From positions 1-61,050 of the forward strand of contig JAPLVG010000023.1 of assembly GCA_026397235.1 (NCBI GenBank): DNA of 61,050 nucleotides. Reading direction: 5' to 3'. The stretch's first letter is position 1. Every line of letters starts with the position of its first letter. Source of the stretch: Candidatus Berkelbacteria bacterium. Lineage in GTDB: Bacteria; Patescibacteriota; UBA1384; XYA2-FULL-43-10; CAINNR01. This document shows positions 4,891-44,549 of the stretch, in pieces. The position numbers and the translations under genes are program-made. Under the pieces are notes generated by a model. The model ran no database searches, was not told the origin of the DNA, and saw only the letters and a list, made by a program, of their open reading frames with translations.

Positions 4891-7800
4891 ATGGCAGTGA
4901 AAACTCAACTTGTGAATAAGCGTCTTCTAGAAAAGAAAAAAGCTCATGAAGTTCCACTACCGAACTTAATTGAGGTACAAACCGAGTCATATAACTGGTT
5001 TTTTGCCGAGGGAATGCGAGAACTCTTTGATGAAATCTCTCCAATCGAGGATTTTACTGGCGAAGTGATGTCATTATCCTTTGGAGATTATTTTCTTGGC
5101 GAGCCAAAAGTGCCAGAAGCGGTGGCCAGAGAAAAAAATTTAACCTATAAAGCGCCTCTTAAAGTACGCGTGTCGTTGCTTAACAAGAGAACTGAAGAAA
5201 TTAAAGAAGCTGACGTGTTTATGGGCGATTTTCCAATTATGACTCACCGAGGAACTTTTATCATCAATGGAGTTGAGCGCGTCATTGTTTCTCAAATTGT
5301 TCGCTCCTATGGAGTACTTTTTGCTAATAATGAAGTTGCCGGCAGAAAACTTTTTGGTGCAAAAATTATTCCATCACGTGGCGCTTGGCTGGAAGTTGAA
5401 ACAGATCTTAAAAATGTCATTTCAGTTAAAATTGATCGAAAACGCAGAATCCCGGTCACCACATTTTTACGTGCTCTTGGTGTTGGCAATGACGAAGAAA
5501 TTAAAGCCTTGTTCGCCGATGTCGATGTCAATGACGAAAATCATTACATTGAAGCCACTCTTAAAAAAGATCCAGCCAAAAATTATGAAGAAGGCTTGGT
5601 TGAAACATACAAAAAAATTCGTCCAGGAGACTTAGCAACAGTTGAAAGCGCAAAATCTTTTATTGAAGCGATGTTTTCCAATATCAAACGCTATGATATT
5701 GGTCGCGTCGGCCGATATAAAATTAATGCCAGACTTAAGGTTGATACTAAAAATGTTCCGGAAAACCGCGTTCTATTAAAAGAAGACTTTGTAAATATTA
5801 TCCGAGAAGTGATCGAATTAAATAACAATCCAGCAGCTTTGCCTGATGATGTTGATAGCTTGAAAAATCGCCGAATTCGTGCCGTTGGTGAGCTAATTCA
5901 GGGCCGCGTTCGCGTTGGTTTGCTCCGTGTTGAGAGAATTGTCAAAGACCGAATGAGCATATCCGAACCAGATGAGACGACTCCGGCGCAATTAATTAAC
6001 TCCCGTCCGATTGTTGCAGCTCTTCAAGAATTTTTTGCTTCCTCGCAAATGTCACAATTTATGAATCAGACTAATCCCCTTTCCGAACTTGAACACAAGC
6101 GAACACTTTCTGCTACCGGTCCAGGCGGACTTTCAAGAGAAAGGGCCGGTTTCGAAGTTCGAGATGTTCACGTTACTCACTATGGCAGAATTTGCCCGAT
6201 TGAAACCCCTGAAGGACCAAACATCGGTTTGGTCGGATATCTTGCATCATATGCAAAAATTAACGATTATGGATTTATTGAAACACCTTATAGAAAAGTT
6301 ATTCTCGAAAACGGCAAGCCAAGAGTTACAGACGAAATCGTTTATTTAGATGCTTCAAAAGAGGAAGACACGATTATTGCCCCTGCTTCAGTTGAAGTTA
6401 ATGAGCAAGGATATATTAAAGACAAAAAAGTCATCGTCCGACATGGCGGTGAGCCAACGATTGCCGATGCAACCTCGGTTGTCTTTATGGATGTTTCACC
6501 AAAACAAATTATTTCTGTTACGGCGGCGCTTATTCCGTTCATCGAACACGATGATGCTGCAAGGGCTTTGATGGGTGCTAATATGCAACGGCAGGCTGTT
6601 CCTTTGGTTGAACCGCAATCAGCAATTATCGGTACTGGTATGGAGAGTGCTGCAGCCAAAGACTCGGGTCAAATTATCTTGGCGATTACACCAGGTACAG
6701 TTAGTCATGTGTCATCAAATTTAATTAGAGTTAAAGAGGCAAAGGGTAATCAACGTGAATATTTCTTGTCAAAATTTGTTCGTTCAAATCAGGGCACTGT
6801 AATTAATCACAAACCACGCATTAATGTTGGTGATATTGTTAAATCCGGGGATTTATTGGCTGACGGTTCAGCAACCCAAGACGGTGAAATTGCCCTGGGT
6901 CGTAACTTAAAAGTAGCCTTTATGTCTTGGGGTGGTGGAAACTATGAAGACGCTATTATTATCTCGTCAAAATTAGTAAAAGACCATGTTTTGTCATCTA
7001 TTCATATTGAAAAATATACTTTGGAAGTTCGTGACACCAAACTAGGTCCAGAAATTCTAACTCGCGATATTCCAAATGTTTCAGAGGAAGCGTTGTCAAA
7101 CTTGGATGAAAATGGAATTATTCGTGTCGGTGCCGAAATTACCGCTGGTGATATTCTGGTTGGGAAAATTTCGCCAAAAGGTGAGACTGAACTTTCTGCT
7201 GAAGAAAAACTGCTCCGGGCAATTTTTGGTGAAAAAGCTAAAGATGTCCGTGATTCCAGTTTGCGTTTGCCTCACGGTGAACGTGGAAAAATTGTTGAAG
7301 TTAAAATTTTCTCTCGGGAATCCGGAGATGAGCTTCCTGCAGGAGTTTATCAAATGGTGGAGGTCTCGGTTGCGCAACTGCGAAAAATTTCTGTCGGTGA
7401 TAAACTTGCCGGTCGTCACGGTAATAAAGGTGTTATTTCAACAATATTGCCAGAAGAAGATATGCCTTTTATGCCAGATGGCACCCCGGTTGATATTATT
7501 TTGAACCCGCTTGGTGTTCCGTCCCGTATGAATATCGGCCAACTTTTTGAAACTCATTTGGGCTGGGCAATGGAAGCACAAGGTATTAAAGTTGCGTCGC
7601 ATGCTCTAGATGGTATTAAGCTTGAAGAAATTCGCCAAGAATTAAAGAAAGCTGATTTACCGGAAGACGGTAAAATTCAGCTCTATGACGGAAAAACCGG
7701 CGAACCATTTGATCATCGAACTGTTGTGGGTATTATTTATATTATGAAACTTTTTCACTTGGTTGACGATAAAATGCATGCAAGGTCTATTGGACCATAT

Positions 7801-8181
7801 TCAATGATTACCCAGCAGCCGCTTGGGGGTAAGGCTCAATTTGGCGGTCAACGTTTTGGTGAAATGGAAGTTTGGGCGATTGAGGCCTATGGCGCTGCCC
7901 ACACCTTACAAGAGCTTCTGACTATTAAGTCTGACGATGTTATCGGTCGAAGCCGAGCTTACGAATCTATCATCAAAGGTGAACCAATTCAAAGTCCAAC
8001 AATACCACAAGCTTTTAACCTTGCCCGACTTGAACCGCCTATCGACGAGAAATTAGTTGAGCCGTTGCCAGATGAAAAAAGTGAGCTTGACGAAGAAATA
8101 GATGAAAAATTAACCGAGCTCGCAGCCGAGCAGGTTTCGGAAGACGAAGATATCGTCTCGGAGGAAGTCGTGGAAATTTAA
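4891..8181 (+). CDS. rpoB: DNA-directed RNA polymerase beta subunit
   Basis: 1096 aa; conserved blocks incl. [29 protein letters not shown]; acidic ~50-aa C-terminal tail. Confidence 0.98.
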
Positions 8182-8215
8182 CTTAAGTATCTTAAGTAAC
8201 TTAAGTTGCTTAAGT
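8181..8215. repeat. Four CTTAAGT words at 9-nt period in the rpoB-rpoC spacer
   Basis: CTTAAGT at 8182, 8191, 8200, 8209; ACTTAAGT is self-complementary. Confidence 0.85.
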
Positions 8216-8228
8216 TTAAAGGAGAATA

Positions 8229-11200
8229 ATGCCAAAATTAGAAGTTAAGGATGCGGTCAATGTTACCGACTTCAAATCGATGAGGATTTCTGTTGCCTCA
8301 CCAGATGACATCCTTTCTTGGTCTCATGGTGAAGTTATGAAACCAGAAACGATTAATTACCGAACTCAGAAACCAGAGCGCGATGGTCTTTTTGCTGAGA
8401 ATATTTTTGGTCCGACTCGGGACTGGGAGTGTTATTGTGGAAAATATCGCAAAGTTCGTTATTCCGGAGTCGTTTGCGATAAATGCGGTGTCGAAGTTAC
8501 CAAATCATCTGTTCGCCGTATCCGCATGGGCCACATCGACTTAGTTGTTCCAATCGCTCATATTTGGTATGTACGAAGCGTCCCTTGTATTATGGGTCAA
8601 ATTCTTGATCTCTCTTCGTCTGATCTGGAAAAAATTATTTATTTTGCCAGTTTTGTAATAGTTGATGTTAATGAAGAATTGCGCCAGGAAATTTTAACTA
8701 GAGTTGAGAGTGAATTTACCAATATGAAAGATGAGAAAACCTCTTCGGCAGATCCAACAATTTCATCTGCTTCAAAAGATATTACTGCTGAAGAAATTAA
8801 TCAGGCTTATAAGACCGCTAAATCACAACTTGAGTCACTCAAAATTGGAAAAATCATCTCTGAGCGTGATTATTATAGTTTGTCGCATAGTTATGGCAAT
8901 GTTGTTCGAGTTGGCATTGGTGCTGAAGCGATTTTGGAACTTTTGGAAAAAATTGATGCTGACTCAGAAATTAAAAAACTTGAAGAACAAGCTGCATCAT
9001 CAATCGGATTACAAAAACGCAAAATTGTTAAACGCATCAGAACCTTGCAAGGGTTAAAAGCTGCCAGCTTAAAACCGGATTGGCTTGTTCTTCGACGATT
9101 ACCAGTTATACCGCCGGATCTTCGACCGATGGTTCAATTAGACGGTGGTCGATTTGCCGCTTCAGATTTGAACGATTTATACCGTCGTGTTATCAACCGA
9201 AATAATCGCCTAAAACGACTTATTAACCAGGGTGCACCTGAAGTTATTTGTCGAAACGAAAAACGCATGTTGCAGGAAGCTGTTGATGCTTTAATTGATA
9301 ATTCAGCCAGGCGTGGTCGGGCAACTACTACCGCCAATAATCGTCGAAAGCTGAAATCACTCTCAGACATGCTTCGAGGCAAGCAGGGCCGCTTCCGCCA
9401 AAATCTACTTGGAAAACGTGTCGATTACTCCGGCCGATCGGTAATTGTCGTCGGTCCGGAACTTAAACTTCATCAATGCGGTTTGCCGAAGGTGATGGCT
9501 ATGGAACTTTATAAACCGTTTGTTATTGGTCGGCTAATTTCTGAAGGCTATGTTCATAATGTTAAGAATGCTACCAGATTGATTGAAAAAAATGAACCTT
9601 TCGTCTGGGATATTCTTGAAGATATTACCAAAGATTCGCATGTACTTTTAAACCGTGCCCCAACGCTTCATAGATTGGGAATTCAAGCATTTCAGCCGAT
9701 TCTGATTGAGGGCAAAGCAATAAAAATTCATCCGCTTGTTTGTCCAGCTTTTAATGCTGATTTTGATGGTGACCAAATGGCTGTTCATTTACCACTGTCG
9801 GCTGAAGCTCAAAGAGAAGCCAGAGAAATTATGCTTTCAAGGAAGAATCTTCTAAAACCATCATCTGGTGAGCCGGTTATTTCTCCAACACTTGATATGA
9901 TTTTGGGCTGCTACTTCTTGACCACAATTGGAGAAGGCAGAACGGGTGAAGGCAAAGTTTTTGCTTGCAAAGAAGATGCGCTTTTGGCTTATGATTCAAA
10001 AATCATCGACCTTAAGGCCAAAATCAAAGTTAGAATCGATGGTGAGATGCAAGAAACTACTGTCGGCAGAATTATCTTTAGTGCCATTATTCCCGTGGAA
10101 CTTGGATATCGAAATCAGGATTTTGACAAACCAAGTATCTCTAAATTAATTGCAGAGTCGTTCAAAAAATCTGGACTTGATTCTACCGCATCCTTCGTTG
10201 ATCATATTAAGGAGTTAGGTTTCCGCTATGCTCAAATGTCCGGAATTACTTTTTCAGCTTTCGATATTCAAGTTCCACCGCAAAAGAAAGCAATTTTGAC
10301 AAAAGCTGAGAATCAACTTGAGATTATCAATCAACAATATAGACGCGGTTTAATTACTGAAGAAGAAAGATACGCCAAAACGGTTGAAATCTGGATGAAT
10401 GCTCAAGGTGAACTACAAGAGGCAATGTTGGCAAACTTTGACAAAGACAATGATATCAATATCATCCGAGTCTCTGGCGCACAGGGAAAGGTTTCCCAGC
10501 TCAATCAGTTGGCCGGCATGAAGGGTTTGGTTGCTGATCCAACCGGTAATATTATTGAATTGCCGATTAAATCAAACTTTAAGGAAGGTTTATCTGTGTT
10601 TGAATATTTCGTTTCGTCTCACGGTTCGCGAAAAGGACGAGCTGATACAGCTCTCCGAACCTCTGAAGCAGGATACTTGACTCGCCGATTAGTTGATGTT
10701 TCACAGGATACTGTAATTACTTCGCCTGATTGTGGTACCAAGAGAGGTGTTATTATCAGTAAAGATTTTTATCAATCACTAAATGATGATTGGGCCAAAC
10801 ACTTGATTGGTCGAAATTTAAATAAAGAAGTTGCCGGTTTTCCAAAAAATACTTTAATTGACGCCGCGGCTTTGGAGAAGATTTTGGCGACTGGCGTCAA
10901 AGAAGTTGAAATTCGATCACTTTTAGTTTGTGAACAATCATGGGGAGTTTGCCAACATTGCTACGGAGAAGATCTTTCAACCGGCAGATTAGTTGAAATT
11001 GGCTCGGCTGTTGGTATTGTTGCCGCTCAAGCTATTGGAGAACCAGGGACTCAGCTTACTATGAGAACCTTTCATACTGGTGGTGCGGCTGGAGTTGATA
11101 TTACTGCTGGTTTGCCGCGAGTCGGTGAGCTTTTTGAGGCTAGAACTCCGCGCTTGGTTGCTGTAATGTCTGAAATTGACGGCAAGGCCAACATCCGAAA

Positions 11201-28443: not shown

Positions 28444-28566
28444 AACCACGCAAAGGCCGGTGGGAATATTGCCGGTGGGGCGAGAAAAAATCTGGAAAAA
28501 CGGCTAGGCAGATCTGTCATCTCAAAACAAAATTATTTACCAAAGAAGAATAAATCAATTGAATAA
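28444..28566 (+). pseudogene. Possible orphan C-terminal fragment of the disrupted Bro-N/DinD-like gene
   Basis: Frame gives NHAKAGGNIAGGARKNLEKRLGRSVISKQNYLPKKNKSIE*, which I recall as typical of the C-terminus of this family; no start codon. Confidence 0.3.
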
Positions 28567-28570
28567 TCTT

Positions 28571-29305
28571 ATGAAAAACATTTTTTTAAAATCAATTTTG
28601 GGTGTCTTACTGTTTGTAGCATTTGTCGTGCTGGCTTTAGTTGCAATCTCCGGCGACAAAAAAGCAAAAGCTGTCGATGTTTGTTGGCAAAAAAACAATG
28701 GGCGCTACTCTTTTGGTGACTCAAACAAGGACTACGAAACAAAGTCATTGTGCCAATCAAACTATGTCTTGTACATGGAAATCGTAAATGGCACTGGTCC
28801 TCAATGCGTATCTGATCTTACCCAAAATGGAACATTTTCTGGCAGAGGGCAGACGTTCAGCACCAAGGAACAATGCAGAGCCTCTTTGCTTGCAACTTAC
28901 AATATGTCGGAATCCCGACCAACCTCGACTTCAAATGCCCCAACCTGCAATTATTCAAATGAATCAGCAAGTTGGAGGAGTAATTTACAAACAAAAATTA
29001 CCGCTTTGTATGCAGAGCTTTTAAAAAGAACTACCAACTCAAATGATTTTGCATATTGGCAGTCGGCGATGCCTTTTCGCAGTTGTGGCCAAACAATTGA
29101 CGAAACAAGCATTCGAGCATTTATTCAGACATCCGAAGAGTACAAGAATCTTCAAGCCGCGAGTACAACTGTTCAACCAGCTATTACCAACCAAAGTACC
29201 GAAGTTCAACTTGTAACCAAAACCGAAGCTCCAAAAACTGGTTTTCTTAACTATATTAAATCTATTCCTTCTCGCATCGCCAACTTTTTTAAGAGATTAT
29301 TTTAA
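28571..29305 (+). CDS. Secreted/membrane-anchored Cys-repeat protein with DUF4214-like C-terminal segment
   Basis: ATG at 28571 (ORF track TTG at 28559); N-terminal hydrophobic segment; two Cys-bounded ~28-aa repeats; LYAELLKRTTNSNDFAYWQS...IRAFIQTSEEY resembles DUF4214. Confidence 0.55.
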   Translation: MKNIFLKSILGVLLFVAFVVLALVAISGDKKAKAVDVCWQKNNGRYSFGDSNKDYETKSLCQSNYVLYMEIVNGTGPQCVSDLTQNGTFSGRGQTFSTKEQCRASLLATYNMSESRPTSTSNAPTCNYSNESASWRSNLQTKITALYAELLKRTTNSNDFAYWQSAMPFRSCGQTIDETSIRAFIQTSEEYKNLQAASTTVQPAITNQSTEVQLVTKTEAPKTGFLNYIKSIPSRIANFFKRLF

Positions 29306-29341
29306 TAACTTATGAAAAATATTTTTCTAACATCAAATGTA

Positions 29342-30619: not shown

Positions 30620-30822
30620 TAATGATAAATAATAGAAACTTTCCGCTCCACGAATTTTTAATGCGGCGCTTCGCCAATCAATTCCTGCTTTCCGCGAACG
30701 CGGTGTCTGGAGAATAGCCAGTAACTATAACAAGATACAATAGTTTCGCCGAAGGCGAACACAGGGCGTTAAAAGCTCTGCTTATAAAATGAAAATTACA
30801 AAATAATTAACGTGGAATAATT

Positions 30823-31362
30823 ATGAAAATTACTTACTTTGTTCATGGCACAACAACTGACAATGAAAAGCACATTTCTTCCGGTTGGAAAGATGTAGAG
30901 CTTTCTGACCTTGGAATTCAACAATCAAAAGACTTGAAAAGTCAGGTAGATGTTAAGAAGTTCGATGTAGTTTTCTGTTCCGATTTAAAACGAGCGGTTG
31001 ATTCGACTAAGCTAACCTTTGAAGGAGTTGTACCAATTAAAATCGATCCACGATTACGTGAATGTAATTATGGCGACTTTAATGCTAACCCATCAGAAAT
31101 AGTTGAGCCAATGCAGGAAGAGAATATTGAAAAACCATTTCCAAATGGCGAAAGTTATGAAGATGTTAAAAAACGCATTAGTGAATTTCTGGAAGACATC
31201 AAAAAAGAGTATGGTAACAAACACATAGCAATTGTTGCTCACAAGGCTTCACAGCTAGCGCTGGATGTTATCATTAAAGGTATGACTTGGGACGAAGCCT
31301 TTGCCACAGATTGGCGTAAAGTTGGGAAATGGCAACCCGGTTGGGAATACGAGGTGAAATGA
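30823..31362 (+). CDS. Histidine phosphatase (phosphoglycerate-mutase-like) family protein
   Basis: 179 aa; ITYFVHGTTTDNE (RHG motif with V in place of R), DLKRA, VAHKASQ. Confidence 0.8.
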   Translation: MKITYFVHGTTTDNEKHISSGWKDVELSDLGIQQSKDLKSQVDVKKFDVVFCSDLKRAVDSTKLTFEGVVPIKIDPRLRECNYGDFNANPSEIVEPMQEENIEKPFPNGESYEDVKKRISEFLEDIKKEYGNKHIAIVAHKASQLALDVIIKGMTWDEAFATDWRKVGKWQPGWEYEVK

Positions 31363-31790
31363 TGGAAATTGTAATTGTCGACAATCCAAACCAATTAGAC
31401 ATCTTGTCGGACAAGACCGCGAATTTTGGTGAATTAAACTTTAAATTTTCACCAAAGTATTTAGCTGAACTAAAATCGCTTGTAAATAAATCACTGCAGT
31501 ACATTGCAACTATCGATGGAAATTTTGCTGGATATTTGGCGGCAAAAGAATCCGATATTTGGCCAGATAGTTTTCAGATTGTTGAATTATTTGTCGACCC
31601 ATCAGCCCAAAGAAAAGGGGTGGCATCTTCGTTGCTAGGAAAATTATTCACCGATGCCCATTGTCAGCTTGTTGTCGAAACTGAAAAAGAAAATCTACCT
31701 GCGATAACACTGTATAAAAAGCATGGTTTTGAAGAAGTCGAAAATGAAAATTGGGATGACATAACCTTGGTGAGAAATGACAATAAATAA
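31359..31790 (+). CDS. GNAT-family N-acetyltransferase
   Basis: ATG at 31359 overlaps the upstream stop (ATGA); VDPSAQRKGVASSLLGKL (motif A), LYKKHGFEEV. Confidence 0.8.
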   Translation: MMEIVIVDNPNQLDILSDKTANFGELNFKFSPKYLAELKSLVNKSLQYIATIDGNFAGYLAAKESDIWPDSFQIVELFVDPSAQRKGVASSLLGKLFTDAHCQLVVETEKENLPAITLYKKHGFEEVENENWDDITLVRNDNK

Positions 31791-32178
31791 AGCCGGTGCA
31801 ATTGTTAGAAAAATAGAAAACGGCGAAGTATATATTTTGCTTTTGCATTTGATTAAACACGACTTTTGGTCGTTCCCAAAAGGGCATATTGAAGAAGGTG
31901 AATCCGCAGAAGACACTGCAAAGCGCGAAATTCTTGAGGAAACAGGGCTTGTAATTAATATCACGAAACCGCTCGGAATCGCGAAGTATAAAGATATTGA
32001 TGGCAATGAAGTTAACTTAAATCTTTTCTTGGCCGATATTGAAAGTGGTGAGTTAGTTGAAGAAGAAGGCCACGAGTTAGTTTGGCTAACAGTTGATGAA
32101 GCAACAGAAAAACTAACCTACCCCGAACTCCGCGAATTTCTTTCTGATAAAAAATACGAAATAATTAACCTGGAATAA
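31777..32178 (+). CDS. NUDIX hydrolase
   Basis: 133 aa; Nudix box GHIEEGESAEDTAKREILEETGL. Confidence 0.9.
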   Translation: MTINKAGAIVRKIENGEVYILLLHLIKHDFWSFPKGHIEEGESAEDTAKREILEETGLVINITKPLGIAKYKDIDGNEVNLNLFLADIESGELVEEEGHELVWLTVDEATEKLTYPELREFLSDKKYEIINLE

Positions 32179-32180
32179 TT

Positions 32181-33080
32181 ATGCCAATTTTTAAAATCAA
32201 ACAAAATGCAGTTAATCAGTTAATGCTTGATAAAAATTATTTTAACAATGAATTCGAACTTAGGGATTTTTTTGCCGCCAATCTTGAACAGTTGCTAGGA
32301 TTAAGATTTTTAGAATCAGAATACCCAACTATAGACGGAAGAATAGATACTTTAGCCATAGACGAAACAAACTCCCCAGTTATTATTGAATACAAATGGG
32401 GACAAGATAATGCCATTTTTGTGCAGGGCTTGTTCTATCTAGACTGGTTGAAGAAAAATAAAAGACATTTTGATTTATTAGTAGCTAAAAAACTTGGTGA
32501 AGACGTAACTGTTAATTGGGCTAGTCCTCGAGTTATATTAATTGCATAAGGCTTTGATAACAGGACTATTACTGCAGTTCAGCAAGTTGATAGTGTTGAA
32601 CTTATAAAATATTCGCCTTATGAACAAGAAATTATCTACCTGGAAAATGTTTATGTGCCAAATAAGTCTAACCGCATTAAACAAAGTAATGATACAGATA
32701 GTTCGACAACTGAGGGGGCTGAGTTAGAAGAAACACATGATATTAGCTATCACTTGACTCGTCATAATTCGAATGCTGTCATAACCAAAGAGTTTCATAT
32801 GCTTAGAGAAAAAATACAGAATCTCCCTGGAGTAGAAGAAATAGTGAATTTTAAGACCGGAATTACTTATAGAACGACGAAAAGTTTTGCTAGGTTTGAA
32901 TTTGGAAGGACATTCATGAACGTCTTGGTTCGAGAACCGAAGTATAATGATCCTACACACTTGGTTCGTGATATCACTTCGCATATGTGGGGGTACAAAG
33001 GTAAAATCAAAGTTACATCTTCTGAAAATACTGACGCTGTTTTTGATATAATCAAACAGTCGTATGAAGAAACCTTGTGA
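32181..33080 (+). pseudogene. PD-(D/E)xK nuclease-like + DUF5655-like protein interrupted by one in-frame TAA
   Basis: ORFs 32181-32549 and 32655-33080 are in the same frame, and the frame is open between them except TAA at 32547-32549; paralogue of 33192-34115 (IDTLAIDETNSPVIIEYK vs IDSVALDESTNSVVLIEYK). Confidence 0.6.
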
Positions 33081-33191
33081 TGCTAACAGCTAATTTTACT
33101 AAGGTTAAATAACTGTTTACAGAAAAAGAAAACTCTCGCAATCTCAAGAGCGAAGTGCTATACTTTAGGCGTAAAATTAAGTGAAATAATT

Positions 33192-34115
33192 ATGGCAATT
33201 TTTAAAATTAATGATCAAAAGCTTGAAGCGATTTCTGAAAAGAAAATTGATTTAGAGCGCGATATTCAGAAACTCACCGAGCAAAACCTTGAAAATGTTT
33301 TTGGATTAAAATTTGTATGTGGTGCAAGCAACCAAGAATTTTGTGTTCGCGCAAATGAACAAGATTTCTACATTGATTCTGTAGCCCTAGATGAATCGAC
33401 TAACTCTGTTGTTCTTATTGAATACAAAAAGGATCGCAGTTTTTCAGTTATTGACCAGGGTTTTGCTTATCTATCTGCGATGCTGAACAATAAAGCTGAA
33501 TTTGTTTTGGAAATAAATGAGCGGCTTAAAAAAAATCTATCAAAAAAAGATATCGATTGGGAGCAATCTAGAATTATTTTTATTTCAAACGAATTCACAA
33601 ATTATCAAAAGAACGCCATCAACTTTAAGGATCTGCCAATGTTTTTGTACGAAGTAAAAATATATGACAACCTTATTGATTACAATCCAATCAAACCCTT
33701 CAAAACCAGTGAATCAATTAACAAATTTATCAAAGATAAAAAAGTCAGGGAAGTAGTAAATGAAGTCAAAGTTTATTCGATTGAAGATCATTTATCGAAA
33801 TCATTACCTGAAATTGTCGAAATCTATAACACGCTTAGCCAAAAAATTCATTCACTTGATACCAGAATTTTAGAGAAACCAGTAAGGGGCTATATCGGTT
33901 TTAAAATTCGCTACCATAACTTCTGTTCTCTCGCGGTACAAAAAAATAAAATCGGGGTTTATTTACGCGCCCAGAAAATATCTGATGGAAATAAACTTCT
34001 TAAAAGGATACCAAGTCAGAGTTCTTTGTGGCGATGTGATATAACTTCGCTTGATCAAATTGATGAGGTGTTTTTACTTATCCAACAATCATATAATCAG
34101 GCACCAGATAAATAA
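33192..34115 (+). CDS. PD-(D/E)xK nuclease-like N-domain + DUF5655-like C-domain protein (intact paralogue)
   Basis: 307 aa; D...E-x-K signature in YIDSVALDESTNSVVLIEYK; C-terminal YIGFKIRYHNFCSLAV... Confidence 0.65.
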   Translation: MAIFKINDQKLEAISEKKIDLERDIQKLTEQNLENVFGLKFVCGASNQEFCVRANEQDFYIDSVALDESTNSVVLIEYKKDRSFSVIDQGFAYLSAMLNNKAEFVLEINERLKKNLSKKDIDWEQSRIIFISNEFTNYQKNAINFKDLPMFLYEVKIYDNLIDYNPIKPFKTSESINKFIKDKKVREVVNEVKVYSIEDHLSKSLPEIVEIYNTLSQKIHSLDTRILEKPVRGYIGFKIRYHNFCSLAVQKNKIGVYLRAQKISDGNKLLKRIPSQSSLWRCDITSLDQIDEVFLLIQQSYNQAPDK

Positions 34116-38829: not shown

Positions 38830-39585
38830 ATGAATTATTTTAAGAAATTGTTATTGGAGAAAAAAATTTCGCACGAGAAGCTTGCGGATATTTTTGGTAT
38901 TTCTCGTCCGACAGCCGCTAAAATCGCAAACGGTGATAAAGAAATGACCATAACAGAGCTGAGAAGGTTGGCAGAGGTGCTTGGAATTTCTGTTGACGAA
39001 GTGCTGGGTGAGAAGACGTCCGAAATTGTTTTAGAGTGTCCAAAGGAGAAAGCCAAGCCAACAGAACGAATCAGTGTTCCAGCAGAAGATGCTGAAAAAT
39101 TTAAGAATGTTCTGCTTTACATTACTCAAAAAATTGGAGCTCTTCCTAATGTTGGTCAGACTGTTCTGTATAAAATTTTATATTTCTGCGACTTTGATTA
39201 TTATGAGAAATTTGAAGAGCAACTTACTGGTGCACGGTATATCAGAAATCATTATGGGCCGACTCCAGTTGCGTTTGCAAAAATCGTTAAAACTATGATA
39301 ACTGCTGGAGAAATTGAAGAAGTAAAAACCAAATATTTCAATAAGGAACAAACCAAATATATCCCTGTGATCGAGCCGAACTTATCTGTATTGTCAGGGC
39401 AAGAGCTTAAACACATTGATGAGGAAATTGAGAAATTGGGAGGAATGACTGCTACTGAATTGTCGAACTTGTCCCATAAAGATGTACCCTGGATCGTCAC
39501 AAAGGAAGGGGATGAAATTCCTTACGAAACTGCTTTTTACAGAACACCTGACACCTCGGTAAGGGATTATGATGATAGTTTATAG
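38830..39585 (+). CDS. XRE-HTH + Panacea (DUF4065) domain antitoxin-like protein
   Basis: 251 aa; HTH ISHEKLADIFGISRPTAAKIANG; LYKILYFCDFDYYEKFEEQLTGARYIRNHYGPTP resembles DUF4065/SocA. Confidence 0.75.
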   Translation: MNYFKKLLLEKKISHEKLADIFGISRPTAAKIANGDKEMTITELRRLAEVLGISVDEVLGEKTSEIVLECPKEKAKPTERISVPAEDAEKFKNVLLYITQKIGALPNVGQTVLYKILYFCDFDYYEKFEEQLTGARYIRNHYGPTPVAFAKIVKTMITAGEIEEVKTKYFNKEQTKYIPVIEPNLSVLSGQELKHIDEEIEKLGGMTATELSNLSHKDVPWIVTKEGDEIPYETAFYRTPDTSVRDYDDSL

Positions 39586-39952
39586 CAAGCATCCAAGATT
39601 CGAAAAGCAGTTGAAAAAACTTCTAAAGAAGTATAGAACCCTGGAAGACGATTTGTTGATTGCCAAAAAAGCTGTAATTGAGCTATCACATGTTAATAAA
39701 ATCGACAACAGATCAGTTGAATTAGTTCCAGGATTTGATCATCAAGAAATTCAAATTTTTAAGATTAAGAAATTTGCCTGTAAAGCACTCGTTGGCAAAG
39801 GTGTTAGGAGTGGAATCCGAATTGTTTATGCATATTTTCCCGAACAAAATCATGTTAAATATTTAGAAATCTATTACAAAGAGAAAGATAACACGGATAT
39901 GGATTATGATTTTGTCAAAAATTATGTAGCAGAAATTATGAAGAGAACATGA
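39569..39952 (+). CDS. RelE/ParE-superfamily-like toxin partner
   Basis: 127 aa; overlaps the upstream gene by 17 nt; GIRIVYAYFPEQNHVKYLEIYYKEKD resembles the RelE/ParE-fold C-terminal strands. Confidence 0.6.
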   Translation: MMIVYSKHPRFEKQLKKLLKKYRTLEDDLLIAKKAVIELSHVNKIDNRSVELVPGFDHQEIQIFKIKKFACKALVGKGVRSGIRIVYAYFPEQNHVKYLEIYYKEKDNTDMDYDFVKNYVAEIMKRT

Positions 39953-39997: not shown

Positions 39998-40042
39998 ATG
40001 AGCGAATATTACAAAGCAAATCGTGATTCATTTATTAGATAA
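39998..40042 (+). pseudogene. 14-codon remnant of the 5' end of a PD-(D/E)xK (Cas4-like) gene
   Basis: MSEYYKANRDSFIR*; the first 8 codons match the intact gene at 43741 (MSEYYKANR). Confidence 0.5.
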
Positions 40043-40090
40043 TATTATGAAAGATTATAAGATTTGGACAGGTAGAGAAAGATTGATTTC

Positions 40091-40687
40091 TTGCAAACCA
40101 ACCAAAAAATAATAGCATTCAATTTTATGGAAAAGCTCTCCTGCAATCTTGATAATACTAACTGGGAGAATATTCGGGTTGGGGCTCGGAAGTATATAGC
40201 CATAATGCAGATGGTTAAGAATACGAATGTTCGAACAGACGAAAGTTTTCGTAGAGCGTTTAATGGATTTTATCGTATAAGGCAGAGATCAAAAGAGTTT
40301 TACGATTTCCTTTATGAATATCTGGAAAGAAATAAAGAAATTAATACTTCTTTCAAACAAACATTATATTCTTTCTATGAGAAGTTTCAGCGTCTTGAGC
40401 CTTCATTTTCGAGTAAGATCGTAGCGACAATCAATCCAAACTTTCCTGTTTGGGATTCGGAAGTTCTGGCTAGGTTTGGGAAGAGAACACTTGGACATAA
40501 TTTAAACAAGGATATTAGACTGAAGGAAATGGTTAAAATATACAGTGAAATATCTGATTGGTATGCCGAATTTTTAGAAACTGACCAAGCAAAAGCAATG
40601 ATTGGATTGTTTGACCAAAAGATCGGCAAGCTAGAAATTACCGACATTAAAAAAATTGATTTAATTCTCTGGCAAACTAGGTCATGA
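40091..40687 (+). CDS. Hypothetical protein (start uncertain: TTG 40091 or ATG 40127)
   Basis: 198 aa; no family recognised with confidence. Confidence 0.5.
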   Translation: MQTNQKIIAFNFMEKLSCNLDNTNWENIRVGARKYIAIMQMVKNTNVRTDESFRRAFNGFYRIRQRSKEFYDFLYEYLERNKEINTSFKQTLYSFYEKFQRLEPSFSSKIVATINPNFPVWDSEVLARFGKRTLGHNLNKDIRLKEMVKIYSEISDWYAEFLETDQAKAMIGLFDQKIGKLEITDIKKIDLILWQTRS

Positions 40688-40782
40688 ATTCTGAATTAAT
40701 CAAAAAGAAAAGAAATACTATGTATAAACTTTCACCATCAGACTTTGCTTACTTGTACAAAGATTGTAAGCTTTGCTATTAG
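40684..40782 (+). pseudogene. N-terminal fragment of a second Cas4-like/PD-(D/E)xK-family gene ending at an in-frame TAG
   Basis: MNSELIKKKRNTMYKLSPSDFAYLYKDCKLCY* ; the S..F......C..C(F/Y) pattern parallels ISRSKLENFMNCSRCFY of 43741-44514. Confidence 0.4.
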
Positions 40783-40820
40783 TTAAAAATTAAACATGAC
40801 ATCACCCGCCAAAGGATTCT

Positions 40821-40865
40821 ATTCCACTTCTATGCGGAGTTTACCCTGTGGGAAGTATAGTAGTG
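40821..40865. repeat. Left copy of a ~45-52-bp inverted repeat
   Basis: The reverse complement CACTACTATACTTCCCACAGGGTAAACTCCGCATAG... matches 42728-42763 at 33/36 positions. Confidence 0.85.
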
Positions 40866-40936
40866 AAATACTGTGTCGGAGACACAAAAAGCTGGTATGG
40901 GTGTTTATGTAAATATCAATATATGACTTATAACTT

Positions 40937-41671
40937 ATGAAACCACAATATGATCTAGAGAAAATTAAGCTTGGAATTGATGAAGGAACGTGGAAGCGCG
41001 CAGTTGCTTTGTACGAATCTAATGCGGTGGAAAACTTCCGGGTACAATTTGGTGATTTTTTCGCGAAAGTAATTGGCGGCGAACCATATAATGTTTTTGT
41101 TTCATCGAAAGTTTATGACGAGGGCAATTGTAATTGTTATCTTGGGCGAAGTGAAATTTTGTGCAAACACATGGTTGCAGTCGCTATTTACGCTGTTAAA
41201 GGTGGACGCAAATTAACCAAAGAGGAAAAGGAATTGAGCCATCAGGTTGTGTTTAGCGGATTAGTTGGTGAACTAACAGAATTAGAATTAACCAATGTTA
41301 AAACAAATATCACAGCGTCACTTAAATATATTAAGTCTTACCATGGTCCCTCTCGGAGTTGGTTTCAATATCAAAATTCACTTACCGAGGGCTGTAATCG
41401 CTTAGCAAAAATTGTTTCTGGATTGCCTATATGCCCGCACACTTCGAGCATTCTAGTTGACTTGTTATTGCGGGCTGACAAGAAATTAACAGCTAGCGGC
41501 ATAGATGATTCAGACGGAATAGTTGGGGCATTCATTGAGGCGGTAGTGTTGTTACTCATGGATTTTTCAAAGTTAGATAAGAATTGTATAAAAACATTTT
41601 CGAAGTTAGTCGGCAAGGAAACCTGTTTTGGCTGGGAGTCCCCACTTTTAGAAATATATGATTCTTTATAA
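40937..41671 (+). CDS. SWIM zinc-finger protein
   Basis: 244 aa; CNCYLGRSEILCKHMVAVAIYA (CxC...CxH SWIM signature). Confidence 0.75.
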   Translation: MKPQYDLEKIKLGIDEGTWKRAVALYESNAVENFRVQFGDFFAKVIGGEPYNVFVSSKVYDEGNCNCYLGRSEILCKHMVAVAIYAVKGGRKLTKEEKELSHQVVFSGLVGELTELELTNVKTNITASLKYIKSYHGPSRSWFQYQNSLTEGCNRLAKIVSGLPICPHTSSILVDLLLRADKKLTASGIDDSDGIVGAFIEAVVLLLMDFSKLDKNCIKTFSKLVGKETCFGWESPLLEIYDSL

Positions 41672-41690
41672 TGGTTGAGATTTGTAATAG

Positions 41691-42441
41691 ATGAAAAGAA
41701 AAAAAATAACACAGAAAGAGCGGCGCACGATTGTTGAAAGTGTTGTCGGTAATGTGCCATGGGAGCAATTTACCCCCGGAATTTATAATAATTGTGATCG
41801 TTGGTGTGAGCGGTGCAGCAAAACTGAGAAATGTTATTTATTTTTTGAAGAGAAAAAAGAAGAGAATCGACGAACAAAAAGAAAAAAAGCCAAGAGATAC
41901 CGCTGGATCACTTAAAAAAGTTGGCGAATCACTTGGGCAAGTAAAGGATTTGATTCAGAAAATTTGTGATGCTGAAGGCATTGATGTTTCCATGACGCCA
42001 GAAGAGGAAGCTGAATATGAAAGAAGAGAGAAATTAACCGATCCGCACAATGATCCGATCGCTATCAGAGCCAGTAGATTATCAAAGTCAATATATAAAT
42101 GGTTGGATTCTGTACCGTCTCTAGACATGGTGAAGTATCAAGAAGCCTACGACCAAGTTTCTTGGCATTGGTCGCTGATTGGAGTAAAAACTGCGATGGC
42201 AATCCATTGCCAAAAGGAAACAGAAATTGAAGAAGGAAGTTCAAGAAAATTTGCCTTGGATCAACAACAGAAGTACAGCTGGATGGCTTATCGCTCGACC
42301 CAGATTTGCAAAAAAGGTTTTGAATTAATGGATGGCTATGTAAAAGATTCCAGAATAAGGCCCATTATTGATGAGAGTCAGAAATTAATGGGTCTAATCG
42401 ATAAAAAATTGTTGGCAACTGATATAATAATAAAGCAATGA
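41691..42441 (+). pseudogene. Cys-rich/helical protein gene requiring a +1 frame change in an A-rich tract
   Basis: ORF 41691-41915 (CDRWCERCSKTEKC...) and ORF 41731-42441 (+1 frame) overlap; plausible coding sense switches frame between ~41845 and ~41912, where A6, A5 and A7 runs occur. Confidence 0.5.
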
Positions 42442-42555
42442 CAGCGAGAGAATTAATGAAAATTAAAGGGTTCGAATTTGACGGGTTTATACGCTAAGAA
42501 AGAGTTTTAATCTTACGGAATCCCATAACATTAAAAAACTAAACTAGGAAAAAAT

Positions 42556-42717
42556 ATGTCAGATTATTACAAAGCAAATCGAACAAAAAATATCTTTGAT
42601 CCTAAATCGGATCAGGCTTTTAAGATCTCTAGAAGCAAACTGGAAAAATGTATTGTGGTTTGTCAGGTCGGTACGGTTAAATCAGCTTTCACAATTAGTA
42701 GAATAAAAAGAGTATAG
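42556..42717 (+). pseudogene. Truncated 5' copy (~30 codons of homology) of the Cas4-like gene
   Basis: MSDYYKANRTKNIFDPKSDQAFKISRSKLEK... parallels MSEYYKANRTKNLYDPKNDQAFKISRSKLEN of 43741, then diverges and stops at 42715-42717. Confidence 0.6.
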
Positions 42718-42727
42718 AATGATACGC

Positions 42728-42779
42728 CACTACTGTACTACCCACAGGGTAAACTCCGTATAGTAATAATAGATGGAAT
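42728..42779. repeat. Right copy of the inverted repeat
   Basis: CACTACTGTACTACCCACAGGGTAAACTCCGTATAG...GGAAT; partner at 40821-40865. Confidence 0.85.
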
Positions 42780-42883
42780 GCCGTAGCTGTTCCGCTTCTT
42801 ATATGTACTTTTCTATATACAAAACCATTGAAAATAGGTTAGAATAGGTATATAATCGGTTGAATTAATATATTGGGAGAATC

Positions 42884-43078
42884 ATGACTGCAAAACAAGC
42901 AGCACAACTTATTTCAAACATCAAAGCGGCAAGAGAAACTATTTCAGAGATGACGCCCGCACAGAGAAAAAACCTCGAGAGATCGTGGGATGTTGAGCAT
43001 GCCTATTATTCCAGTTCTTTAGAGGGCAGCAATATAAGTAGAAAAGAATTTAATAAAATTGCAGAAGATGTAAAATAA
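42884..43078 (+). CDS. Fic-inhibitory antitoxin-like small protein (class I FicA/VbhA-like)
   Basis: 64 aa; contains S-x-x-x-E-G (YSSSLEGSN), the inhibitory-helix motif; directly upstream of the Fic gene. Confidence 0.6.
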   Translation: MTAKQAAQLISNIKAARETISEMTPAQRKNLERSWDVEHAYYSSSLEGSNISRKEFNKIAEDVK

Positions 43079-43084
43079 AGTCTG

Positions 43085-43738
43085 ATGATAACTCGGCCTA
43101 AAGACAATAAAGATCTGGAAAAACGAGCGGCAATCGGAGTAATCCGTGCCGCTCGTTTTGTAAGAAGATACGCGAAATCAAACAAAGTAATTGATGTCTC
43201 AACGATAAGACTTGTTCACAAAGAAATTTGGAGAGATGTTTGGCCAGAAATTGCTGGAGAATACAGGATCGAAAATCTGGAAATTTCGGGATCAAGTTTG
43301 CAGCTACCACATTTTAAAGATGTGCCTAAATTAATGGAGAAGATGGACATTGAGTTTGCTAAAAAAATTAGCAAAACAGGTGATGAATGTAGGGGTGTGA
43401 TCGCAGACTTCGGTGAAATAAATGACGAATTGATAAATTGTATTGATAAAGTTGTTTCTTTGTCTACCTGGGTTCACCATAAGATAACTTTTATTCATCC
43501 CTTTCGAGAAGGAAATGGAAGAACGGCTAGATTGATAGCAAATCTAATTTTAGAACGATATGGTCTGGTCGGTATTTCAGTAAAGGTCGAGCGTGAAAAC
43601 AAGGATGCTTATATTCAGGCACTATCTCAAATTGACAAGATGGCTGACTATGAGCCATTAAAAAATTTAATTTACAAAGGGTTAGCTGAGAGGTATGAAG
43701 GAGTCGCAATGAAATATTATCCATTTGCCAAAGGTTAA
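43085..43738 (+). CDS. Fic-domain protein (AMPylase-type toxin)
   Basis: 217 aa; HPFREGNGRTARL active-site motif. Confidence 0.9.
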   Translation: MITRPKDNKDLEKRAAIGVIRAARFVRRYAKSNKVIDVSTIRLVHKEIWRDVWPEIAGEYRIENLEISGSSLQLPHFKDVPKLMEKMDIEFAKKISKTGDECRGVIADFGEINDELINCIDKVVSLSTWVHHKITFIHPFREGNGRTARLIANLILERYGLVGISVKVERENKDAYIQALSQIDKMADYEPLKNLIYKGLAERYEGVAMKYYPFAKG

Positions 43739-43740
43739 AA

Positions 43741-44514
43741 ATGAGTGAATACTACAAAGCAAATAGGACAAAGAATTTATACGATCCGAAGAATGATCAG
43801 GCTTTTAAAATCTCCAGAAGCAAACTAGAGAATTTTATGAACTGTTCGCGGTGCTTTTACATTGACAGAAGATTAGGGGTTGGCACACCACCAGGGTTTC
43901 CATTTAACTTAAATTCGGCAGTCGATACCTTGCTGAAAAAAGAGTTTGATATTTTCCGCAAAGAAGGCAAAAAACATCCGCTAATTGAAAAATACGGTGT
44001 AGATGCTCGGCCGGTCAGCCATGAAGAATTGGACAAATGGCGTGAGAATTTTGTTGGTATTCAATATTTACACCCAGAAACCAACTTTCTAATTACCGGT
44101 GCCATTGATGACTTGTGGATTAATTCTAAGGGTGAATACATTGTTGTTGATTATAAATCCACATCCAAAAATGGTGACATTGTCGCACTAGATCAAGCCT
44201 GGCAGAGTGGCTACAAAAGGCAGATGGAAATTTACCAGTGGTTGCTACGGAAAAATGGTTTAAAAGTATCAGATACGGGTTACTTTGTTTACTGCAATGG
44301 TGTTACCGATTGCGACAAGTTTGATAACAAGCTGGATTTTGAAATATCCCTAATTGCTTATGATGGTGACGATTCCTGGGTTGAGGATACTATTATAGAA
44401 GCTCACAAATGCCTTTGTTCGGACAAAATCCCTAGCGCCAATCCGGAATGCGATTACTGCAACTATGTATCTGCCGTTTCTGTCATCTCCAATACCAACT
44501 CCACAACCAAATGA
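43741..44514 (+). CDS. PD-(D/E)xK nuclease with Cas4-like four-Cys arrangement
   Basis: 257 aa; N-terminal CSRCFY, GAIDDLWINSKGEYIVVDYKS (D...D-x-K), QMEIYQWLL, C-terminal C...CDYC. Confidence 0.8.
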   Translation: MSEYYKANRTKNLYDPKNDQAFKISRSKLENFMNCSRCFYIDRRLGVGTPPGFPFNLNSAVDTLLKKEFDIFRKEGKKHPLIEKYGVDARPVSHEELDKWRENFVGIQYLHPETNFLITGAIDDLWINSKGEYIVVDYKSTSKNGDIVALDQAWQSGYKRQMEIYQWLLRKNGLKVSDTGYFVYCNGVTDCDKFDNKLDFEISLIAYDGDDSWVEDTIIEAHKCLCSDKIPSANPECDYCNYVSAVSVISNTNSTTK

Positions 44515-44522
44515 TTATGCCG

Positions 44523-44549
44523 CACTACTATACTTCGAAGTGTAGTAGT
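44523..44549. repeat. Near-perfect palindrome sharing the CACTACTATACTTC word with the inverted repeats
   Basis: CACTACTATACTTC|GAAGTGTAGTAGT; the first 14 nt are identical to the reverse complement of 40852-40865. Confidence 0.8.

Follow-up and report, generated by a model that had tools for sequence, protein, structure and literature searches.

Upstream of an intact gene for a Cas4-like nuclease, in a 61,050-nucleotide stretch of a Candidatus Berkelbacteria genome (contig C3:1-61050 of genome G000, hereafter the window), several truncated copies of the start of such genes lie between unrelated gene cassettes. The arrangement was probably produced by serial cassette acquisition, anchored on homology within the conserved Cas4-like gene, the stubs being scars of the recombination events. 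The process is best read as akin to homology-facilitated illegitimate recombination, or to 'insertion with long target duplication'. The genome, of 925 kb (0.93 Mb), is 99.7% complete, has 39% G+C and is of the Patescibacteria or Candidate Phyla Radiation (CPR) type. The feature is located close to the right-hand end of an accessory island of 18 kb, delimited by the map of open reading frames (ORFs) and the Pfam context, which interrupts a ribosomal-protein operon just upstream of secY and carries all of its genes on the + strand. From 5' to 3' are found a SocA/Panacea pair, a remnant of 26 nucleotides (nt), ORF198, a stub of a second Cas4-like subfamily with a hairpin, a SWIM protein gene with a companion gene of 242 amino acids (aa), a 5' stub with a hairpin, a promoter-like site, a 64-aa gene with Fic, and the intact gene with its own hairpin (Table 1). 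Rfam and tRNA scans of the window found nothing.

The identification of the intact gene as a Cas4-like PD-(D/E)xK nuclease, made in an initial annotation of this DNA, is borne out by the match of its product to PF12705 (E-value 1.3e-12; 48.6 bits, versus a curated cut-off of 22). Cas4 matches in NCBIfam and PADLOC are weaker, and the cut-offs for true Cas4 are missed (30 vs 65 bits for TIGR00372, 16.8 vs 22.7 for PF01930). In an alignment of 12 sequences, the cysteines of the N-terminal (C35, C38) and C-terminal (C237, C240) CxxC motifs are invariant, as are D123-D124 and D137-Y138-K139, which make up the D...(D/E)xK core. Because no Cas1 gene (PF01867) was found in the 99.7%-complete genome, the gene is classified, from its sequence, as a 'solo' Cas4-like gene outside any CRISPR-Cas adaptation module; its neighbours are the Fic and TrpR-like genes. 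No solved structure is a sequence relative of the family at E <=0.01.

The family is present in 15 of 41 close relatives and in 174 of 401 sampled genomes of the phylum (about 40%), with homologues 50-77% identical in aa sequence across relatives and phylum. More than 590 matches were confirmed in each of two collections, metagenomic and genomic, other phyla included, and the best 80 of each were kept for analysis. Below, G denotes genomes (G000 being that of the window) and L denotes loci or contigs, metagenome contigs included. A nucleotide profile was built from 173 full genes of the family and run over 176 loci.

The two partial copies of the same gene reported by the initial annotation proved to be genuine. 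The longer one, at 42556, had been described as shortened to about 30 codons with about 75% nt identity; it is 76-77% identical to the intact gene over 102-104 nt, aligns with aa 1-30 at 87% identity in a tblastn search (E 5e-12) and fits the 173-gene profile with E 3e-10. Its homology stops at about nt 93-99 (codons 1-31/33), the ORF continuing to 42717, and no 3'-tail homology follows the break. The remnant at 39998 retains the eight matching codons originally noted, with 3 mismatches against the first 26 nt of the intact gene, and has one exact 17-mer in common with the 42556 copy. Chance matches amounted to 0.00 in 100 dinucleotide shuffles, which dispels the concern that such short similarities might be background. 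The SocA-linked ORF127 ends 45 nt upstream of the remnant.

The third stub, at 40684, had been rightly taken for the N-terminus of a different subfamily, but its end was placed too early, at 40782, while homology reaches about 40825. With its in-frame TAG read through, it matches aa 11-47 of proteins of 213-222 aa in G201, G336 and G315 (E 3e-12, 3e-10 and 1e-7), and one such relative itself matches PF12705 at 3e-13. These relatives were found by a phylum-wide search, after none had turned up in the window genome or in the retrieved loci. The ATG of the stub overlaps the stop codon of ORF198. 'Beheaded', the term first applied to the upstream copies, is the wrong word; their heads are kept and their bodies lost, and they are here called truncated.

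Over 93 nt, the 42556 stub and the intact gene are separated by about 13 synonymous and 9 non-synonymous changes, corresponding to proportions of differing synonymous (pS) and non-synonymous (pN) sites of 0.78 and 0.12; Ser AGT/TCA and Arg AGG/CGA codon switches occur among them. Under the null model of a stub identical at birth and then drifting, about 70% of the differences are expected to be non-synonymous. By a binomial test the synonymous excess has p 0.005 in the window pair and p 3e-5 when four pairs are combined, the others being those of G021 (pS 0.55, pN 0.07), L035 (0.16, 0) and G202 (0.16, 0.02). Because synonymous differences prevail in the window pair as well as in those of the three other genomes, the window copies must have diverged while both worked as genes. 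Each stub thus descends from a separate functional allele and did not arise as a local duplicate that decayed.

For the same reason, an in-situ duplication of the gene start, by a staggered-cut target or a tandem duplication with neutral decay of the extra copy, is scarcely credible. Direct repeats flanking the inserts, as in insertion with long target duplication (PMC2853133), and the 95-97% identity of the young ones would agree with it; yet synonymous differences dominate in 4/4 pairs, young ones included, and the Ser and Arg switches of the 42556 stub are typical of long divergence under selection.

A pN far below pS could also mean that selection on the stubs is ongoing, if they were retained as short ORFs or leader peptides regulating or coupling translation of the downstream cassette, or as decoys. 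The 42556 stub indeed keeps its ATG and an open frame of 53 codons, is among the genes called in every Logan contig, and in one variant contig shows three clustered synonymous changes. Such retention is nevertheless very improbable: the stubs end at different codons and have unrelated tails, the oldest is down to 8 matching codons, that of G202 is recent (95% identical to the neighbouring gene), and selection before truncation is a simpler account of the synonymous bias. The variant (L195, Logan ERR15302175) is 1 of 11 population contigs; its changes fall at codons 2, 4 and 6 of the stub (window 42556-42580), the rest being identical, and could be a short gene-conversion patch from another allele.

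The position of the stubs relative to the cassettes can be compared with that of complete genes in other genomes. In the window, cassette 1 lies directly upstream of the 26-nt remnant, the 42556 stub comes after cassette 3, and cassette 4 ends 2 nt before the intact gene. Elsewhere, homologues of 3/4 of these cassettes are found upstream of full-length Cas4-like genes, two of them directly: HTH-SocA + toxin pairs adjoin such genes in L136 and L154 and a Fic gene does so in L153, while a SWIM homologue, 49% identical, is separated from the gene in L148 by one other. Each window stub therefore stands where a complete gene stands elsewhere. ORF198, the remaining cassette, has no match in Pfam, NCBIfam or PADLOC.

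Relatives do not lack cassette variability, a circumstance which had been considered as a possible objection. The 140 upstream neighbours of the gene fall into 122 families and the 137 downstream neighbours into 123, and the gene has no fixed partner. In several relatives, variable small genes are interposed between the Cas4-like gene and a preceding cluster of three genes (about 800-1000, 400 and 500 aa), which is read, from gene sizes and sequences, as a type I restriction-modification operon.

The profile scan of the 176 loci revealed, besides the primary genes, fragments consisting of gene ends only, with no internal pieces. Outside the window, 5' stubs were found in G021, L035, L048 and G202, the last by a genome search. 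In G021, an 80-nt stub, whose ATG overlaps the stop codon of the gene before it, lies 1.1 kb upstream of the Cas4-like gene, and two small ORFs occupy the interval. In L035, repeats of about 110-122 nt, 97% identical, surround a 1.3-kb insert with a RhuM gene; in G202, a 243-nt stub (repeat of about 250 nt), 95% identical, delimits a 2.1-kb insert with an AntA-type gene. These two events are young, judging from the 95-97% identity. Stubs of the other end of the gene occur in L055, with a 112-nt 3' repeat, in G382 and in L078, where there are three in succession (6100-8760): three cassettes of about 0.9 kb are located downstream of the gene, and behind each of them stands a copy, 40-144 nt long, of the 3' end of the gene. 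The L078 copies are 92-97% identical and contain a TAGTATAAT-like -10 box just past the stop codon; one of them reaches about 60 nt beyond it.

A direct comparison within one sample was provided by L215 and L035 (L035/L214; ERZ27248939), which share 99.7% identity until a point within a DUF6512 gene, past which they are unrelated. After that point L215 carries an AbiEi-like gene, and L035 a 57-codon DUF6512 stub, the Cas4 stub, RhuM and the intact Cas4-like gene. The polymorphism exists at the level of the population, and its junction is non-homologous and lies within a gene; L215 is an alternative version of the island, not a simple empty site. Since similar stubs of other genes are present in the window island itself, the process is general in these islands, and the Cas4-like gene is a favoured, not a unique, target.

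The initial proposal, of repeated cassette insertion into, or recombination at, the 5' end of this gene family, is thus supported by synonymous-site divergence, by recurrence, by cassette homologues beside full copies and by the hypervariable neighbours. It needs to be qualified in that no fixed breakpoint or motif was found, 3' stubs downstream of the gene occur as well, and variability is seen between lineages and not between strains.

Among the 5' stubs, the break falls at nt 26, 36, 80 or 243 of the gene and, in three cases, at nt 96-102, and the 3' stubs start at about nt 571, 648, 667 and 703; breakpoints are not fixed. No motif is shared by the junctions, and the recombination site which the initial annotation envisaged did not emerge, neither a specific motif nor a fixed breakpoint being found. 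No recombinase gene lies in or beside any of the inserts examined, and the island of the window has none either. The window contains no tyrosine recombinase, and the only PF00589 match of the genome is on contig C10. Eight large serine recombinase genes, with frames of 301-529 aa, are present in the genome (on C18, C20, C22 twice, C12, C3:74843, C15 and C10), the nearest being 30 kb away.

These serine recombinases, the cassette-like appearance of repeat-flanked units of about 0.9-2 kb, and the end of three independent 5' stubs just before the first Cys codon would fit a site-specific process, in which small mobilisable cassettes, served by a recombinase in trans, carry a replacement gene end as in dusA/tRNA islands. 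The spread of the breakpoints (26-243 nt at the 5' end, about 571-703 at the 3' end), the missing recombinase and junction motif, and the fact that both cargo and sequence past the break are unrelated between events make such integration very unlikely. There is likewise only a slim chance that the gene ends form a dedicated cassette-capture site, an integrase-free, homology-based analogue of integron attI, with a preferred break before the N-terminal CxxC codons (nt 96-102, three events) and at the C-terminal ones; the nuclease might then help to process incoming DNA ends.

The hairpins found at some boundaries belong to a genome family of 8 copies, located elsewhere 5-15 nt after the stop codons of unrelated genes. 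Within the window, only the hairpin after the intact gene folds better than shuffled sequences, and none is present at the 39998 boundary. A role as cassette-specific recombination sites was discarded because the family also follows the stops of unrelated genes, and an assignment to Ssn-type repeats because the sequence differs. The loop GGAGTTTACCCTGTGGG is found in four hairpins (C1:43529, C8:26506, window 40836 and window 42739) and is enclosed by two different stems, ATTCCCGCC…GGCGGGAAT in C1 and C8 and CACTAC…GTAGTG in the window, so that the loop is kept and the stem swapped.

The same hairpins suggest a two-step origin, in which complete units, made up of a cassette, a Cas4-like gene and a terminator hairpin, were first joined in series, as might happen when a circular element integrates in the Campbell manner through homology over the full-length gene, and the upstream copies then lost their bodies by internal deletion. 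Within 0-75 nt downstream of the window stubs comes a hairpin of the 8-member family also found behind the intact gene; the distance from stop codon to hairpin is 10 nt for the 42556 stub ORF and 8 nt for the intact gene. A synonymous-biased divergence is predicted by this explanation too, and the test of stub polarity by locus, given below, is not significant. However, homology to the 3' tail of the gene was found after none of five 5' stubs (z <=1.4; no nhmmer match on isolated segments), 0/176 loci carry two full copies within 10 kb, and the hairpin is a generic post-stop element which also follows unrelated genes. On balance the two-step origin is considered unlikely. G347, examined as a two-copy intermediate, was set aside, as it holds two different paralogues among housekeeping/core genes.

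In homology-anchored acquisition, the preferred reading, the Cas4-like gene, conserved at the nucleotide level, would act as portable homology inside otherwise unrelated accessory or defence islands. The anchor is one-sided, the gene being 60-77% identical in aa sequence across the phylum and both flanks unrelated between loci. Incoming DNA, consisting of a cassette followed by its own Cas4-like allele, would pair with the resident gene. One end would be resolved by homologous recombination within the gene, the other by an illegitimate join in or near the first 26-250 nt of the resident copy. The product would contain the resident cassette, the resident 5' stub, the new cassette and an intact gene, of donor or chimeric origin. 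Repeats of the process would stack the SocA toxin-antitoxin (TA) pair, a stub, ORF198, the subfamily-2 stub, the SWIM pair, a stub, the Fic TA pair and the intact gene, the oldest stubs being the shortest, and the survivors would be only those products which keep one intact gene. A mirror process would yield 3' stubs downstream of the gene. If a circular fragment carrying a portion of the gene inserted in the Campbell manner, an identical product would result, and the two routes are not distinguishable here. Natural transformation is inferred as the route, with a one-step mechanism, either homology-facilitated illegitimate recombination or Campbell-type insertion-duplication. The genome encodes ComEC and DprA, as judged from gene content only.

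Several observations weigh against this reading. The alternative cassettes expected at homologous loci are seen as neighbours varying between lineages, but in the window population the arrangement is fixed: all 16 contigs with an identical Cas4-like protein, collected by exact-protein look-up, share it, as do the single contigs found with each of two other locus proteins, and no isogenic empty site for the window is found among these 16 and single contigs. The end of three independent 5' stubs at nt 96-102, before the first Cys codon, is unexpected for random illegitimate junctions. The polarity, with 5' stubs upstream and 3' stubs downstream of the gene, is seen in 10/12 stubs but only in 6/8 loci (p 0.14). 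Direct repeats are only about 2-fold enriched at the Cas4-like gene relative to the remainder of the loci (6-9/63 repeats, versus 6% of the length). The window stubs are then followed by a hairpin of the family which also follows the intact gene, and this could mean internal deletion of complete copies. Finally, microhomology at the junctions is not demonstrable, since the junctions are read but donor sequences are lacking.

Table 1. Features of the cassette array in the window, listed by position; strand is left as a dot for the palindrome
Feature	Position	Strand	Basis
Cassette 1: HTH-SocA/Panacea antitoxin (251 aa) + ORF127	38830..39952	+	Pfam SocA_Panacea 8.8e-19, HTH_3 (helix-turn-helix)
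26-nt remnant of the same gene start	39998..40023, within 14-codon ORF 39998..40042	+	match to the intact start
Cassette 2: ORF198	40091..40687	+	ORF list
5' stub of the second Cas4-like subfamily, about 47 codons, one in-frame TAG	40684..40825	+	N-terminus matches
Hairpin element, inverted copy, directly after the subfamily-2 stub	40830..40865	-	inverted repeat of 36 nt, with 92% complementarity to 42728-42763
Cassette 3: SWIM zinc-finger protein (244 aa) + 242-aa gene	40937..42441	+	Pfam SWIM, PADLOC PDC-S62
5' stub of the Cas4-like gene, from a second allele	42556..42717	+	homology from 42556 to about 42654, then 62 nt of unrelated sequence to the stop
Hairpin element, 10 nt beyond the 42556 stub ORF and its stop	42728..42763	+	repeat match
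Promoter-like site TTGAAA-17-TATAAT, 11/12, at the head of the Fic cassette	42828..42856	+	consensus scan only
Cassette 4: 64-aa partner gene + Fic toxin (217 aa)	42884..43738	+	Pfam Fic 1.5e-14, PADLOC PDC-S04 6.5e-25
Intact stand-alone Cas4-like PD-(D/E)xK nuclease gene, 257 aa	43741..44514	+	PF12705 PDDEXK_1
Palindromic hairpin, same family, 8 nt after the stop of the intact gene	44523..44549	.	folding z-score -3.6

The 242-aa gene of cassette 3 is frameshifted in this assembly, while it is intact, at 242 aa, in Logan contigs. The window and the Logan contig L195 are 99.4% identical over 10.9 kb, and their differences are mostly concentrated in a patch of about 230 bp (41655-41860) at the junction between the SWIM and 242-aa genes, where mismatches reach about 13% and there are several indels, including one of 22 nt. 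The patch causes the frameshift of the 242-aa gene in the window, and may be either a local recombination patch or an artefact of the assembly consensus.

Stub-like sequences of other genes in the window island were observed at two places. At 29301-29336, a 10-codon stub (MKNIFLTSNV, then a stop codon) reproduces the start (28559-28595) of a gene for a 248-aa protein; it is located directly after the end of that gene and before the next cassette, and so lies downstream of its intact copy, unlike the Cas4 stubs of the window. At 30789-30831, 32147-32189 and 33175-33211, a leader of about 35 nt with a start codon (…AAATAATTAAC[G/C]TGGAATAATTATG) precedes three successive genes; the first two leader copies bracket a three-ORF block (30823-32178), which resembles a repeat-flanked insertion at another gene.

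Further observations concern the surroundings of the Cas4-like gene in other genomes. A family of 142-145 aa (…RRF[LY]IE[CV]KGKSY…) is encoded directly upstream of the gene in G021 (L021, G021:C53) and, in L209 (G201:C2; 949-2775), upstream of a subfamily-2 gene with one gene in between; it is thus a cargo recurring beside both Cas4-like subfamilies. A conserved leader before the ATG was sought in 157 alleles, and only an A/T-rich bias and a T at position -1 were found. Several alleles (L059, L056, L073, L084, L117) carry a TATAAT-like box 6-10 nt before the ATG and no Shine-Dalgarno sequence, which suggests leaderless transcripts of the gene in some lineages.

CPR or Patescibacteria have tiny genomes with few classical mobile elements, and the assembly and turnover of their defence islands are poorly understood. 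The stubs described here would be a readable record of the order of acquisition, and scans for gene-end stubs may give cassette boundaries, relative ages and donor alleles straight from the sequence. A conserved and widespread single gene could be a landing strip common to many lineages, on which unrelated cassettes move without integrases, and this suggests a reason why solo-Cas4 genes sit in hypervariable neighbourhoods. If the gene ends really were a capture site, solo-Cas4 of CPR and DPANN would gain a role in the building of defence islands.

Stand-alone Cas4-like genes have been described for CPR bacteria (Hudaiberdiev et al. 2017, PMC5704561). The solo-Cas4/PF12705 family of CPR and DPANN in that study shares with the gene analysed here the stand-alone 4-Cys PD-(D/E)xK architecture, a small CRISPR-less genome, and a wide distribution with function unassigned. 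The study covers the distribution and the selection regime of the family, with neither gene-end stubs nor a role as recombination anchor.

Insertion with long target duplication was reportedly noted for restriction-modification genes by Nobusato and colleagues in 2000. In the later survey of this mode of insertion, mostly in competent species, restriction-modification genes are flanked by direct repeats of 30-420 bp, whereas an empty site has the repeat sequence just once (Furuta, Abe and Kobayashi 2010, PMC2853133). The likeness lies in the defence-type genes, the lack of transposase or integrase, and the flanking direct repeats, which often overlap the end of a neighbouring gene. Inserts below 20 kb with repeats above 30 bp, as defined in that work, are found in the window (102-nt repeats around 1.1 kb) and elsewhere, with repeat lengths of 122 nt in L035, about 250 nt in G202, 112 nt in L055 and 40-144 nt in L078; Pfam, ORF content and recombinase searches detect no mobility gene in the inserts. 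The cargo here, however, is of the TA, SWIM, RhuM or AntA type and not restriction-modification, the same conserved gene is hit repeatedly in many genomes, and the synonymous-biased divergence marks the repeats as two alleles, not as the products of duplicating one target. Homologous cassettes adjoin single full-length genes in distant genomes.

Orphan arrays of type VI secretion system (T6SS) effector-immunity genes in Vibrio cholerae have been ascribed to homology-facilitated illegitimate recombination (Kirchberger et al. 2017, PMC5361080). These arrays, as well as those of Rhs and contact-dependent inhibition (CDI) systems, resemble the present one in having a conserved anchor, serial insertion beside it, older modules shifted together with a fragment of the conserved gene, and no integrase. 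They differ in that the conserved stretch is a portion of the toxin gene, and what is displaced consists of 3' ends together with their immunity genes, whereas here the anchor is an unrelated stand-alone nuclease gene, the stubs are of either end, and the cargo is functionally unlinked to the anchor.

With integron arrays the window shares small, co-oriented, promoter-poor cassettes, stacked serially beside a fixed point. Unlike integrons, it has no IntI integrase beside the array, the sole PF00589 match being the one on contig C10, and no attC sites: the boundaries are coding 5' ends and, more generally, gene ends of varying length, accompanied by generic post-stop hairpins that are missing at 39998. 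Islands of the dusA/tRNA type are likewise not matched, given the variable breakpoints and the inserts without integrase. The class of mechanism is already known; what is new is the target and the host group, a Cas4-like landing strip for defence and TA cassettes across CPR genomes.

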